From: a virus
Lineage: Duplodnaviria; Caudoviricetes
DNA: 29,322 bases
Virus record (IMG/VR): IMGVR_UViG_3300022885_000066
Span: 1-29,322 of that record
Reading direction: 5' to 3' (one strand)
Shown here: in pieces, positions 9,762 through 16,440 of the stretch
How the letters are laid out: each line of letters starts with the position of its first letter
How positions within the stretch are numbered: position 1 is the stretch's first letter
The notes under the pieces: generated by a model
What the model was told of the DNA's origin: nothing
Databases searched by the model: none
Seen by the model: the letters and a program-made list of their open reading frames with translations, nothing else
Made by a program: the position numbers and the translations under genes

Positions 9762-10237
9762 ACGGTACTTACCTCTAAGCCTATTGCGCCAGTAGATTCG
9801 GCTAGTATTTCCGCCTCTTGGTCTGGGTAGAAGTTCCCACCAAACCCAAAAGACCTATCCTCATTGCCAGAGCCAACAGGGAGAGTGCTTGGATTTAATG
9901 TTGCACCCATTTGTTGACCGATAATTCTCATGGTCGAAAGCCCCTCTTTGGCCGCAATTCCTAGCGCCTGAGAAATTACTCCCCCATAGTCAGGGGACAC
10001 CTCGATAGCCATGTTAGCGATAAGCCCCCTCAAAGCTCCCGTAGGGATTGTTACTATGTCTCCAAGGTCATTGACCTCGGTATAGCCTAACATAATGCCA
10101 TTAGCGTCAAGCTGTGCCATAAAATTGTTCATTGCAAAGATGAAGTCTTGGTATTCAGATGCCTCAAGCGGAGCTTCAGAAGCCTGTACTAAGATCCTTT
10201 GCAGAGATGCCTTTGCTACCTGAGCCACTGTTGCCAT
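9758..10237 (-). CDS. Head-to-tail adaptor (P22 gp4-like)
   Basis: 159 aa after coat. Motifs NMAIEVSPDYG and PSTLPVGSGNE. Confidence 0.88.
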   Translation of the reverse strand: MATVAQVAKASLQRILVQASEAPLEASEYQDFIFAMNNFMAQLDANGIMLGYTEVNDLGDIVTIPTGALRGLIANMAIEVSPDYGGVISQALGIAAKEGLSTMRIIGQQMGATLNPSTLPVGSGNEDRSFGFGGNFYPDQEAEILAESTGAIGLEVSTV

Positions 10238-10347
10238 TATTCAAAAGTCGCCGGTTTTGCCGGTTTCTTGCCTTTCTTCTTTGCGGTTTCAGCAGCCTTC
10301 TTTCCTGCTTTGGTGTATGGGAATTTCTTACCTTTAACCATTGGCAT
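10237..10347 (-). CDS. 36-aa Lys-rich micro-protein MPMVKGKKFPYTKAGKKAAETAKKKGKKPAKPATFE
   Basis: Below ORF-track cutoff. AAGAGGT SD. Its TAA overlaps the gp4 ATG (TAATG). Confidence 0.75.
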   Translation of the reverse strand: MPMVKGKKFPYTKAGKKAAETAKKKGKKPAKPATFE

Positions 10348-11688: not shown

Positions 11689-12522
11689 CTATTCAAATGT
11701 AGCGCCTGCCGGTCCTCTAGGTTTAGGAGACTTTCCTGCGCTGTGGGGGCTTTCCAGAGGGTCTGGAGCGCCATTTACCTTGGGTTTAAGAGCAGCAGCC
11801 TTCTGCTTAATCTGGGTCGCTATCCGTACCGCAGCCTGAGCTGGCGATAGATGGCTTAACTCTTCCAGTTCGATTGGATTCTTAGAGAGATAGGTCGTAA
11901 TTAATGGGCCTTGCTCATCATCCAGAATAAACTGGACTACATCGTTATTGATGCCAAACTGCGCCACCACATTAGCCGCGACCTGCAACTCTTCTGCCTT
12001 AACCCCTAGCCTTTTAGCTGCCTGAGAATAAGACTCAACCCTTTCGTTTAAAGCTTCGTACTGCTTTTTATCTTGCTCATGCTTAAGACTCTGCTGCTGT
12101 TGGCTTATCGCCTTCTGCTGTTGGTCATAAGCAAAAGCATTTCGCATGGCCTCATCCCTTTGCGCGTAACTCCTTTTGTACTCCTCGTCAGAAAGTGCAT
12201 AAGGGTCTGGTGCTTGGGGTATTTGTGGCCTGCCCTGTTTAGGTAGCTTTGCTTGTAGCTCTGTCAGTTGCCTTTGAAGATCTTCTGCTTCTCGCTGAAA
12301 CTTCCGTTCTTTCTCGTGAGACTTAAAGACCTTCTTGTTAATGGCATCGTCAAAGACACGTTGCTGTTCTACACTAAACTTTACTTTCGCAGTTTCCTGC
12401 GACTCCGACGCTGACTCGGCATCTTGATCCTCATCAAGATCTTCGGTCTCTACCTCCTCCTCTTCTAATGAAACGTCTTCATCATCCAATTCGTAGTTGT
12501 CTTCCGGTTGCAGCTCGCTCAT
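11689..12522 (-). CDS. Scaffolding protein
   Basis: Acidic N-terminus, coiled coil and GPLITTYLSKNP. Directly upstream of coat. Start re-assigned to MSELQPED (ATG 12522). Confidence 0.85.
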   Translation of the reverse strand: MSELQPEDNYELDDEDVSLEEEEVETEDLDEDQDAESASESQETAKVKFSVEQQRVFDDAINKKVFKSHEKERKFQREAEDLQRQLTELQAKLPKQGRPQIPQAPDPYALSDEEYKRSYAQRDEAMRNAFAYDQQQKAISQQQQSLKHEQDKKQYEALNERVESYSQAAKRLGVKAEELQVAANVVAQFGINNDVVQFILDDEQGPLITTYLSKNPIELEELSHLSPAQAAVRIATQIKQKAAALKPKVNGAPDPLESPHSAGKSPKPRGPAGATFE

Positions 12523-12578
12523 ATCTTGCCCTTGTAGGTAAATGCCACAGATAAGGATGTGTGCCTGTATTAATGCCA

Positions 12579-12587
12579 ATAATACCA
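12579..12587 (-). promoter_or_regulatory. Candidate extended -10 promoter for scaffold/coat
   Basis: TG-G-TATTAT about 57 nt upstream of the scaffold ATG. Confidence 0.4.
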
Positions 12588-12654
12588 TATTATGGTCAAA
12601 AGCAATACATTGTGGTTAGATTGACCAAATCAACAAAACTGATAAGGAATAGTT

Positions 12655-12816
12655 ATGAATGATTTATATGAATTGTTTGAAACGGACGACCCTTCCCAGA
12701 TGGCAGATAGACTAATGCAGTTGATAAGAGAGGCGATAGAAGACGAGGGTCACACTGAGGAGACTCTAGAGGTAATCAAGGAGATGGTAGACGAGCTGAC
12801 GGGTTTAGTGGGATAG
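12655..12816 (+). CDS. 53-aa acidic helical protein, candidate immunity/antitoxin
   Basis: Not in ORF track. TAAGGA SD. Sequence MNDLYELFETDDPSQMADRLMQLIREAIEDEGHTEETLEVIKEMVDELTGLVG. Its stop is 8 nt from the stop of the convergent effector gene. Confidence 0.65.
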   Translation: MNDLYELFETDDPSQMADRLMQLIREAIEDEGHTEETLEVIKEMVDELTGLVG

Positions 12817-12824
12817 AGCCCTAT

Positions 12825-14198
12825 CTAAGCAGCCCCAGACATTGACCTTCCGTATATCCCTGATAGCAGGTTTGCACTGTCAGCCTTGGCTGGGTCAAAC
12901 TCTGCGTTAGTAGAGCGGATGTTCTTAGGGTCGAATATAAGGTAATGAGTTGCAGGTGTGTAAGTTCCATAATCCGCATTATCTGAGAAGTTCTTAATTT
13001 TAATGCCGTCAAACCCCTCCTCCTTTGCCTTGGTGGCCCAAGTAGCAAGTTGGCTATCGTCTAAATCTGACATTGTTGCCCCATCGACATCGACCTCAAA
13101 CAAGTTGCCGCGTATTCTTGCCGAGATTATGTTCTGCCCTCCCCCGTCAATAAGCTCGCCGCTTTGCTCTAACTTTTCCGCTTGAGCCATTAAATCGTGC
13201 GATTTATCCCATTCTCCCGCTCTTTCTGCTGCGTTTGAGGCATCTACCAGCCTTTGAACGGGCATATCTTCCGAGGCCATTTTAGCGTAACCAGCAGACA
13301 CCTCTGGATTATCTGAAAACCAAGTGCCCATCTTTGCGCTTTTAGCCCTTGTAACAGACCCGCCAAACTCTTTGGGATTAAATTCTTCAATATCTGCCGA
13401 CGTACCTGTATAAACAGTTTCGGGCAAGAAACCACCCTCTTCGGATCTCTGCATCCTTGCCGCTGTTGACGGGTCCAGCCCCCTCAGTGATGACTGGCTT
13501 CCTGCTGGGGATATATCTCTTAGAGTAGACCTATTATACTCTGGAGCGGCTTGAATAGACTGCTTGAGAGTCATTCGAGAAGTTGCATCGTCAGCAGGGT
13601 CAAAATAGCCTTGGACGGTTCTCTCTCCTCTATCCTTTGCCTCCCAATAACGATGAGAACCGTCCATAATGGTTAGCTTCCCGTCGGCTCCTTTAGATAC
13701 AAGTATCGGCCCTGAGGTTTGACTTTTGTTTACCCTCAGCGAGTCGCTGATTAAAGGCTTTAAATCATCTATATTAAAGTCTGTTGCGTGCGGGTAAAGA
13801 TTGCTAGAACCTTCGCCTATATCTCTAAGTGTAGACCTTGCGCCCTTTGCTGCCTTGGATGCAAGCCCGCCCACTATAGGGACCGCCCCCACCATGTTAA
13901 TTACAGCTCCTAACATATCGCCCTGATTAAAGGATCTACCTGCATCCTCTAGGGCTATAGCGTCTCCTATCACGGGAGCGAAGTCTGCTGCCGTATTAAT
14001 GCCATCGGCAAGGTTAAGAAGTCCAGTCCTATAGCCTCCTTCCAAGCCTGTCGCGTCTATCCCATCTCTCATTAGATTGCGTAATGTAGACCTAATACCA
14101 GTATTGTTGGTTACTGTTGCCTGAAATCTAGGGACTTCAGAGGAAAGGAGTTTTTCTCGCTGTACCTCTCTAGCTAAAGCCCTAAGATCAACGCCCAT
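12825..14198 (-). CDS. Modular effector: pre-toxin TG-like + ParB/Srx-like + ART-PolyVal-like ADP-ribosyltransferase domain
   Basis: aa ~70-120: DFAPVIGDA...GDMLGAVINMVGAVPIVGG..K.AK. aa ~145-200: GPILV...IMDGSHRY. aa ~245-445: ARMQR..E.GF..TVYTGT...GTWFSDNPEVS..YA...GFDGI...YLIFDPKNIRS.NAEFDP. Confidence 0.7.
   Translation of the reverse strand: MGVDLRALAREVQREKLLSSEVPRFQATVTNNTGIRSTLRNLMRDGIDATGLEGGYRTGLLNLADGINTAADFAPVIGDAIALEDAGRSFNQGDMLGAVINMVGAVPIVGGLASKAAKGARSTLRDIGEGSSNLYPHATDFNIDDLKPLISDSLRVNKSQTSGPILVSKGADGKLTIMDGSHRYWEAKDRGERTVQGYFDPADDATSRMTLKQSIQAAPEYNRSTLRDISPAGSQSSLRGLDPSTAARMQRSEEGGFLPETVYTGTSADIEEFNPKEFGGSVTRAKSAKMGTWFSDNPEVSAGYAKMASEDMPVQRLVDASNAAERAGEWDKSHDLMAQAEKLEQSGELIDGGGQNIISARIRGNLFEVDVDGATMSDLDDSQLATWATKAKEEGFDGIKIKNFSDNADYGTYTPATHYLIFDPKNIRSTNAEFDPAKADSANLLSGIYGRSMSGAA
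13512..14093 (-). repeat. RSTLR(D/N) domain-junction direct repeats
   Basis: AGGTCTACACTTAGAGATATA (13838-13818) and AGGTCTACTCTAAGAGATATA (13532-13512) match at 19/21. A third copy AGGTCTACATTACGCAAT starts at 14093. Confidence 0.8.
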
Positions 14199-16440
14199 TG
14201 GCTATAGCCTCTAACTCTTGAGGGCTTAAAGATCTAAGCATCTCCCTCATTTGCTCCTCTTCCTTAATTCTCTGCTGCTCTTGCATTTGAGTAATCTTCT
14301 GCTGGTTGTTAAGTTCTTCACCAAATGACTTTATGTTGCTCATATCTATCGTGGCCCCAGCCTGCTCTGCCTTGACCTGAGTATTCATTCTGTCAGTCTC
14401 AGCCCTGAAGCCGTCTATCTGAGCATCTGATTGGTTGTCAGCCATAAGCATCTGTAGCTTCTGAGCTTCTAACTGTAGCTTTATCCTTTCGTTATTGAGC
14501 TTCTCTTGGTCTATCTGAGCCTTGAGCATTTCAGCTTGAGCTTTTAGCTGCTCGGCTTGAGCCATAACCATTGCGGGGTCAGGTGGTTGTTGGCCCTGCA
14601 TCTGTGCCTGCGCCTGTTCTCTTTCCTGCCGTTCTTCGTCAGTTAATTGAGACTCTGGAATAATGCCAGCAGAAAGCATCTGCTCTCGCTTGCGCTCAGA
14701 TATCTGCGTAGCAGCAGGGGTAGAGATGTTCTGTAATAACAAGTCACCAGCCATCTGCATTAACGTAGGATCAACTTGCGCGAGCTTGGTAATTGCTTCG
14801 ACTGTTTCCTGCTGACGGTTCTTAAAACTGGCCCCAGCTTTGCATATAACATCATAGATGCCTTGCGATAAATCATTAAGGGTTACTATTTTCCCTGTCT
14901 GCTCATCGATGATCTGATTATTGATGTCAGTCATATTATAAGTGTCGTCTTCTCTTAGCACTCTGACAACTCTCTGAGTATCGTATACTTTAGGGATGGC
15001 ATCTTTTAACAATCGGCCAGTTGCGCCTATAGCAATCTCCATAGCCCTAGTGTAGTTGTAAGTAGCATTGTCGCCTTTGTTTTGTAGTTGGCGGATAGCC
15101 ACTCCTGACTGGGCATTAGGATTGTCACCCATGTTGGCCGCGAACATGCCAGAAGAGGCGTTCATCATCCCCTGCATAGCCTGAGCTATAGTTCTTAGCC
15201 CGCCGTTAATCTGCGCCCCACCCTGCTGTTGGGGGATACCAGGAGCTTCAGGGTCTTGGTTGTAAAACTGTACGGGATCGGCATTAGTGTTCAGGGTTTG
15301 GAGAGTTTTCTCATGCCCTGCCGCTTGACCGGGGGTCATCCAATACTTGGCCCTTGGTGCTAAGGCTCCCTCTTCTATCTCTCTTGATAGCGCATAATTT
15401 AGAACCCTTTGAGGGTCCAGTAATTTCTGTACAACGCCGTAATAGATAGTCTTGTTCTCGAATATCTTAAAATTACCATAGACCGGGACAACGGGTATTC
15501 TGTTAAAAACAGTCTTCTTAGCCTCTTCTAACCAATCCTTACCATCAAAGTATCTCGAGCAAACGATATGACCCTTTCGCGTTCGTCTTTTAATCTCTGT
15601 GACCCCAATCTTTTCAAGGTCATCAACAACAGATTCAAAGTCATCATCGACTTCGTGGACCTGCCCGTTAGACATCATTACCAGCTCTTTATCCTCGCTC
15701 TCAAGATACAGAAACTCTCCGACTACAACAGCCTCAGCCTTGTCAAAGTATGCGTCTCCATCTCTGTCCTGAGATACTGATTCTCCAGATCCTTCGGGCC
15801 ATCTGTTCTCGTACTCATCGGGGGCCATAGGATGCAAAACGAAAGCATAACGAGAGTCTGACTTGTCTTGAAGCTCGGCAGATGAATCAAACCATACCCT
15901 GTCGATAGGATTGGCTATCTTCTCAAGCATGAGATCCTGGTCAAATGAGTTGTCATCTGCATACTTCTGGCTAACTCTCCACGCATCAAACCCACTTGTA
16001 ACCATTCCGCGACAGGCTTGAGCGTATATCTGTTTAGCACTGGATAGGTTTTCTACGTTCCTGATAATGCCGTCATAGGTCATAGCGATATCTTTTGTTG
16101 CATCGCCTCCAGAAGGAGAGACTCGTATATCAAAGTCTGCCTGCTCAATCTCTGATGATATTTGAGATACTATTGGGCTAACCTGATCGAAGGTATAGCG
16201 GGGCTTGTCTACATTAGAAGTCCACCATTGGGGCTCCCACTGTCCATCCTTCTTATCTACAAAGAGATGAGCTTCTCTGGCATTATCCCTGTTATCGCTT
16301 TCAGTTTGTTGGCAAGACGATAATAGATTAACGACACTCTGATGCTCTTCGTACTTATCCTTATAAGATAGATCAGCCCCAGTGTATTCAGCCGACTCGT
16401 CTTCAGAGTTCTCGCCTTGCTCATTTTCATACTTAGACAT
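14188..16440 (-). CDS. Portal protein (P22 gp1 family)
   Basis: 750 aa. Motifs DGQW, RIPVVPVYG, LLDPQRVLNY and AQSGVAI. Gln-rich C-terminal barrel. Confidence 0.93.
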   Translation of the reverse strand: MSKYENEQGENSEDESAEYTGADLSYKDKYEEHQSVVNLLSSCQQTESDNRDNAREAHLFVDKKDGQWEPQWWTSNVDKPRYTFDQVSPIVSQISSEIEQADFDIRVSPSGGDATKDIAMTYDGIIRNVENLSSAKQIYAQACRGMVTSGFDAWRVSQKYADDNSFDQDLMLEKIANPIDRVWFDSSAELQDKSDSRYAFVLHPMAPDEYENRWPEGSGESVSQDRDGDAYFDKAEAVVVGEFLYLESEDKELVMMSNGQVHEVDDDFESVVDDLEKIGVTEIKRRTRKGHIVCSRYFDGKDWLEEAKKTVFNRIPVVPVYGNFKIFENKTIYYGVVQKLLDPQRVLNYALSREIEEGALAPRAKYWMTPGQAAGHEKTLQTLNTNADPVQFYNQDPEAPGIPQQQGGAQINGGLRTIAQAMQGMMNASSGMFAANMGDNPNAQSGVAIRQLQNKGDNATYNYTRAMEIAIGATGRLLKDAIPKVYDTQRVVRVLREDDTYNMTDINNQIIDEQTGKIVTLNDLSQGIYDVICKAGASFKNRQQETVEAITKLAQVDPTLMQMAGDLLLQNISTPAATQISERKREQMLSAGIIPESQLTDEERQEREQAQAQMQGQQPPDPAMVMAQAEQLKAQAEMLKAQIDQEKLNNERIKLQLEAQKLQMLMADNQSDAQIDGFRAETDRMNTQVKAEQAGATIDMSNIKSFGEELNNQQKITQMQEQQRIKEEEQMREMLRSLSPQELEAIANGR

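Follow-up and report, generated by a model that had tools for sequence, protein, structure and literature searches.

Cassette exchange and a recurrent six-residue peptide in a portal-adjacent gene of P22-like podoviruses

Is the gene lodged between the portal and scaffold genes of a P22-like podovirus a toxin kept in check by its small convergent neighbour, as the original prediction had it, or does this slot house another kind of effector? The locus lies in a 29,322-nt stretch of viral DNA (the whole of it hereafter called the window). Profile searches identified this stretch as the record of a P22-like podovirus carrying a terminase, a P22 portal, a scaffold, a P22 coat, head completion genes and a gp7-like ejection gene; RecT, NinB and NinG are encoded in it as well. 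Salt-lake metagenome runs contain the window sequence, and no RNA runs carrying it are listed.

The portal-adjacent protein and its modules

The main features of the locus, in window positions, are as follows.

14188-16440, - strand: P22-like portal; its C-terminus lacks the recurrent peptide here, and the peptide is present in relatives whose slot is empty
12825-14198, - strand: portal-adjacent polyvalent-type (cassette-array) gene, 457 aa, between portal and scaffold (the slot gene)
13839-14132, - strand: constant Gly-rich helical head, aa 23-120, a putative membrane-insertion or loading region (head profile, low model confidence)
13587-13817, - strand: ParB/Srx-fold cassette with DGSHR at 13650-13664 (structure and PHROG); missing from most relatives
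12876-13466, - strand: ART-PolyVal domain in a conserved frame, with a swappable core at 12936-13451 and Thr264 at the usual His position (profile and fold)
12655-12816, + strand: gene of an acidic 53-aa helical-hairpin protein, a lineage-specific accessory converging on the slot gene
11689-12588, - strand: scaffolding protein, probably starting at 12522; a possible partner in cargo loading

As had been proposed, the 457-aa ORF begins within the portal gene, whose stop it overlaps by 11 nt, and precedes the scaffold gene. The slot gene would likely be co-translated with the portal through translational coupling. A programmed frameshift fusing the two genes was dropped: many loci share a +1 overlap, others are gapped in all frames, and no slippery site was seen. 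The 457-aa protein has no tblastn match in cultured phages, and neither it nor the 53-aa protein matches NCBIfam or PADLOC.

Both enzyme-like modules of the original prediction held up. The ART-PolyVal profile matches residues 259-431 (E 1e-8; 36.4 bits against a cut-off of 31.2), and ART folds lead the structure searches, with RES toxins and PARPs aligning to the domain at Z 6-7.8. The AlphaFold model of the protein reaches a pTM of 0.40 overall, and its confident part is the one that aligns to ART folds. Foldseek gave weak E-values in the PDB and 38 viral matches at E≤0.001 for this domain, whose sequence has no meaningful match in the PDB. The strand-1 His of the H-Y-D active site, described for the ART-PolyVal (Tox-ART-HYD2-like) family in the excerpts of PMC5512222, is replaced here by Thr264; among 47 close homologues this residue is His in 41, Thr in 5 and unread in 1. 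The window allele, with a seemingly non-canonical active site, may be weakly active, altered or a form that binds NAD. The predicted ParB/Srx-like DGxHR module is seen as DGSHR at residues 179-183. In the Atlas model, residues 128-204 adopt a ParB_N fold (TM 0.54-0.57 to five ParB_N clusters), and the cassette matches PHROG ParB weakly (E 8e-4); against Pfam ParB_N it stays below the cut-off.

Two conflict-related enzymatic domains in one polypeptide (ParB fold and ART-PolyVal, where at least two mark the class) and a place among virion and packaging genes, in the portal-scaffold interval, are those features of phage polyvalent proteins that sequence can reveal, and on them the protein would belong with that class. 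As described in the excerpts of Iyer et al. 2017 (PMC5512222) and Iyer et al. 2022 (PMC9503650), polyvalent proteins likewise carry several conflict domains per chain, among them ART-PolyVal, ParB-like, PBECR, GNAT and LPD23; their genes lie beside portal or capsid genes, and they are predicted to be packaged and injected. The slot family differs from that description in its small size (160-1070 aa), its lack of a MuF or portal fusion, its fixed slot, its shared Gly-rich head and its repeated peptide, and the window allele in lacking a metallopeptidase and the strand-1 His.

The claim that the system is MuF-independent was upheld. PF04233, the one MuF model searched with, has no match at E≤10 anywhere in the record and none in the Pfam scans. 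The PT-TG-like character ascribed to the head was not confirmed: PF14449 has no match in it at E≤10 and matches 0 of 20 heads, an Atlas PT-TG cluster feature score of 0.88 being a lead only. For want of a profile match MuF membership was rejected, and PT-TG membership is at most tentative. The slot family resembles MuF polymorphic toxins (Jamet et al. 2017, PMC5576092, in the parts of that paper considered) in that the gene lies immediately 3' of the portal and joins a constant N-terminus to variable enzymatic cargo. It differs from them in being without a MuF match, in occurring in podoviruses where MuF toxins belong mostly to siphoviruses, in varying its internal cassettes too, and in having a small neighbour that is convergent and does not co-vary. 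No integrase was found either, tyrosine or serine, in five of five related records rated 97-100% complete (the window record is rated 85% complete). As MuF toxins are described in the excerpts of PMC5576092 and PMC3482391, the slot protein is not one.

The head itself is widespread, its profile retrieving 1486 clusters at E≤0.001. A weak match to the translocation helices of diphtheria toxin (E 0.012) suggests that it could form a membrane-inserting hairpin. A second head type is found on 8 of 62 slot proteins and is homologous (E 1e-5 to 7e-23) to part of gene 802-2691, with which the ejection block ends.

2128-2580, - strand: N-terminal region (aa 38-188) of the last ejection-block gene, homologous to the second head type; the gene lies after the gp7-like gene and before a tail gene

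This homology argues that heads have been exchanged between the ejection-block and slot loci. The ejection-type head differs from that of the window allele (HHalign probability 13%), and a common origin of the two head types was sought without success. In one relative (L249) the orthologue of gene 802-2691 matches only from aa 217 onward, past the head region at aa 38-188.

Cassette repertoire and exchange

Most of the 120 homologues listed for the 457-aa protein share the head, the frame around the terminal ART, or both, and vary in the middle. Our cargo survey covered 114 of the best 150 head-profile clusters and 64 further slot proteins. Behind the shared head it recovered ART-PolyVal, PBECR5, GNAT, ParB_N, LPD23, zeta toxin (zeta kinase), DUF3293 and lysozyme domains, together with many segments left unassigned; the same domain set is described for phage polyvalent proteins in the excerpts of PMC5512222. 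The frame pattern was found in 35 of 61 proteins, whose terminal cassettes form 18 clusters, and some alleles contain LPD23 together with an HExxH segment. The expected constant N-terminus with variable cargo was recovered, in that the head is kept. What follows it is a cassette array in which internal as well as terminal modules vary and the C-terminal tail is usually conserved, rather than a single variable toxin tip. The same ART frame also occurs in other phages inside proteins of 1000-2700 aa that lack the peptide (L042, L036, L078, L083, L086 and others); these are classical large polyvalent proteins.

We also sampled the slot from the scaffold side, taking the best 80 of 286 loci, of which 28 lacked the portal end and 38 were distinct. 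A gene of at least 150 aa occupies the slot in 36 of these 38, and two are empty; the sequences are related, so that locus counts here are not counts of independent events. Two loci carry a Cys-rich acidic gene of 127-129 aa between portal and slot gene (L041, 3591-3980; L054, 2700-3080), with no clear family match. Small ORFs in the slot-scaffold gap of two others (L032, 5163-5366; L052, 1243-1455), amid accessory genes, resemble by eye what we take to be Phd/YefM-type antitoxins.

Exchange can be followed within one population, among alleles whose flanks are 98.5-100% identical. In three contigs (L005, L006 and L007) the stretch from about 13876 to 12890 is replaced by a short module of 393 bp, with loss of the ParB cassette and the terminal ART; in a fourth (L109) the ART core alone is swapped. 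Contigs of all three allele forms were recovered from the same salt-lake sample in runs X8 and X20, and two forms each from runs X18 and X19. The joints read from them, at 13452 and 12935 with 522 other letters between, and a loose end at 12890, agree with L109 and L005. Recovery from several runs is not independent replication, since 19 of the 20 matching runs may be the source of the window DNA. The truncated allele and the empty slots show that the slot gene is dispensable. The crossovers lie in the conserved ART frame and in head sequence, outside the peptide, which was accordingly rejected as a crossover site. Such positions are as expected for RecT/NinB/NinG functions, and homologous recombination by this phage system is the probable shuffling engine. 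Compared with L005, the short allele in L006 (5001-5727) has one extra base, which divides it between two reading frames. Besides an allele series found within single samples, the family supplies many uncharacterised cassettes as candidate anti-defence or host-takeover enzymes.

The convergent acidic gene

The original prediction was right about the existence and character of the small gene. It converges on the slot gene across an 8-nt gap (ORF 12655-12816, + strand), encodes 53 aa with 16 D/E against 3 K/R, and is judged real, having 51 homologues in the database at E≤0.001 and an AAGGA site that lies 6 nt ahead of it. It had also been called the only + strand gene of the morphogenesis block; the ORF list contains other + strand ORFs there. 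The protein is predicted to be a helical hairpin (pLDDT 77), and a fold search returned no match at E≤0.001.

That this protein is the cognate immunity of a polymorphic toxin has in its favour a neighbour gene that is adjacent, small, acidic and conserved, the 57 loci found with its profile all being contigs of this phage group where the scaffold is visible, and a match to EntA_Immun at E 8e-4, which lies below the cut-off. Relatives argue strongly the other way. In one population the protein is 98-100% identical beside three different slot alleles. Across 36 loci its similarity tracks that of the scaffold (rho 0.59) and hardly that of the cargo (rho 0.12), and in 103 of 129 locus pairs near-identical small proteins accompany unrelated cargo (pairs are not independent); the small ORFs co-varying with cargo that had been anticipated are thus not what we found. 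Where portal and scaffold are both visible, 30 distinct loci have slot gene and small gene, 20 the slot gene alone and 3 the small gene with an empty slot, so that 20 of the 50 slot-bearing loci lack the small gene, which all three slot-empty ones keep. The small gene is lacking in L023, where the ART and that of the window are 67% identical. Nor was it found elsewhere in any of three records that lack it locally, one of them rated 100% complete, while the same search found it in five of five controls. Furthermore, it lies on the opposite strand, whereas MuF immunity ORFs follow the toxin in the excerpts of PMC5576092, and the five near-complete relatives showed no integrase. We consequently rejected cognate immunity on co-variation, and regard the toxin-immunity explanation as highly improbable.

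The 53-aa protein could possibly be a broad inhibitor or chaperone that binds a constant part. Most likely, judging from its distribution, its gene is an independent lineage-specific accessory that shares the intergenic slot. Acidity, small size and adjacency do not by themselves make a gene an immunity gene. In phage H6/1 the portal-scaffold gap holds four small opposite-strand ORFs and no effector.

A recurrent peptide shared with the portal tail

The window allele contains four internal copies of a peptide of the form S[ST]LRx[LI], placed at module borders, the terminal copy being missing (S[AST]LRx[LIV] in the family).

14073-14090, - strand: copy 1 (aa 37), within the head
13818-13835, - strand: copy 2 (aa 122), at the head/ParB border
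13512-13529, - strand: copy 3 (aa 224), after the ParB cassette
13476-13493, - strand: copy 4 (aa 236), ahead of the ART frame

Copies 2 and 3 share 19 of 21 nt, more than in any of 100 codon shuffles (maximum 18). Counting with the pattern S[ASTP]LR, we found 125 copies in 59 of 61 distinct slot proteins, a set without the broken L052 and L006 and with L059 reassigned, against 2.8 expected in shuffles (maximum 8). Position +5 is L, I or V in 102 of the 125. A copy lies within 20 aa of the C-terminus in 46 of the 61 proteins, and copies are often N-terminal too, where the profile used itself contained the peptide. The copies use all six Ser, Leu and Arg codons and include 70 distinct 12-mers; these patterns show that the peptide is selected at the protein level. 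The regular expression finds no copy in 2 of the 61 slot proteins and in 3 of 36 in the scaffold-anchored sample. Four slot proteins without a terminal peptide (L196, L197, L210 and L213; 4 of 119 rows) end in Gly-Tyr-Glu, like the scaffold tail, which may be chance. In a partial survey of the literature no account of the peptide or of the slot family was found.

Scaffolds are nearly devoid of the peptide (one copy in 71 sequences). Portals, many of them partial, have four copies in 68 sequences, all at the C-terminus and all at loci with an empty slot; in the scaffold-anchored sample, largely the same contigs, the portal bears the peptide in 2 of 2 empty and 0 of 36 filled loci. There it occupies the position that the slot-gene tail would take relative to the small gene. 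This portal copy occurs in three variants with synonymous differences only, on two portal backgrounds. Compared by eye, slot protein P0200 shows the reverse swap, ending in a portal-type tail. Seven of 35 distinct portal tails end in SALN or SALT. In eight near-complete records and in the window the ejection proteins lack the peptide, which was therefore rejected as a general ejection signal.

The explanation that we favour, with moderate confidence, is that the slot gene encodes a MuF-free polyvalent protein whose constant helical head and exchangeable enzyme-like cassettes are loaded into the procapsid through the peptide and injected against host targets or defences. Loading would likely occur during prohead assembly, with the peptide as a docking tag common to the cargo and the portal tail, and injection would follow with the DNA, helped by the head. 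The ART and ParB modules would then act on host macromolecules or on NAD+ and nucleotides, the predicted activity being NAD+-dependent. The timing of loading is reasoned from P22, whose ejection proteins are recruited by scaffold and lie near the portal barrel (excerpts of PMC8402733 and PMC4992974). In the same sources, loading of T4 IPIII depends on a short sequence at its terminus (PMC8402733), and Alt is a packaged and injected ART (PMC5512222). Like the P22 ejection proteins and the T4 internal proteins and Alt, which are internal cargo recruited during prohead assembly, the slot protein may be such cargo, and a role as virion-packaged effector is plausible. It differs from them in that its gene is dispensable and hypervariable and its putative tag occurs in several copies and on portal tails as well; Alt, moreover, belongs to the R-S-E clade of ARTs and the slot ART to the HYD-like clade. 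An internal protein of another podovirus, in the pre-ejectosome of cyanophage A4 (PDB 9k3a, chain B), can be aligned with the ART domain over 111 residues (Z 7.2, rmsd 3.4). This is a lead only, as the score is in the range that the tool calls common and "ribosyl" does not occur in the text of PMC12002296.

The main rival to docking is that the peptide is a protease recognition site, at which a polyprotein would be split into separate enzymes, either ahead of packaging or once injected. Copies at module borders and protein-level selection fit this reading, as do the processing into units proposed for polyvalent proteins in the excerpts of PMC5512222 and the LPD23 plus HExxH segment in some slot alleles. 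We nevertheless consider it unlikely: cutting at copies that lie 2-3 residues from an N-terminus, 3 from a C-terminus or in the tail of the portal would free no more than tiny fragments; in the window and two near-complete relatives no protease family was matched at E≤1e-5 among 76 further ORFs, many of which match nothing; and HExxH is absent from the 113 ORFs screened.

Less likely again is that the protein stays unpackaged, as a late accessory whose targets in the infected cell would be progeny DNA, host defences or competing phages, with the peptide a linker spread by recombination. A dispensable gene, two copies near-identical in DNA and a portal-scaffold gap that also hosts unrelated accessory genes would suit it. 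Against this reading stand crossovers that fall in the ART frame and head and not in the peptide, retention of the peptide at free termini and, with synonymous drift, on the portal, and the second head type, common to slot and ejection-block genes.

A stronger form of the docking explanation, which we put forward tentatively and think doubtful as a whole, is that these aquatic podoviruses load a rotating enzyme arsenal by means of a six-residue tag that mimics the C-terminal helix of the portal. The portal would then carry the tag when the cargo gene is lost because its vertex always requires one copy. Capsid entry and processing of MuF-free polyvalent proteins, both so far predicted in the parts of the literature considered, become testable through the peptide.

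Scaffold tails and leader

Tail-sharing occurs a second time in this clade. Small basic ORFs after the coat gene end, like the scaffold, in an aromatic-Glu tail, and one to three of them occur in many related loci; scaffold and small basic proteins thus form a second tail-sharing pair beside portal and slot protein, whatever its function. In the window, a very basic ORF of 36 aa (10237-10347, - strand) between the coat and head-completion genes has such a scaffold-like tail. If the stronger form of the docking explanation is true, the peptide and this scaffold-tail tag on small basic proteins would amount to two peptide address codes for capsid cargo.

The scaffold gene is preceded by a further conserved element.

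12579-12605, - strand: conserved promoter-like motif of the TTGCTT-15 nt-TG-TATTAT type, ahead of the scaffold gene and divergent to the small gene (by eye)

A consensus scan did not report this motif. In the scaffold leader of the window (12522-12605, - strand) and of related loci lies a stem-loop whose arms vary yet stay paired. It is possibly a site of translational autoregulation, for which the P22 scaffold is a precedent.
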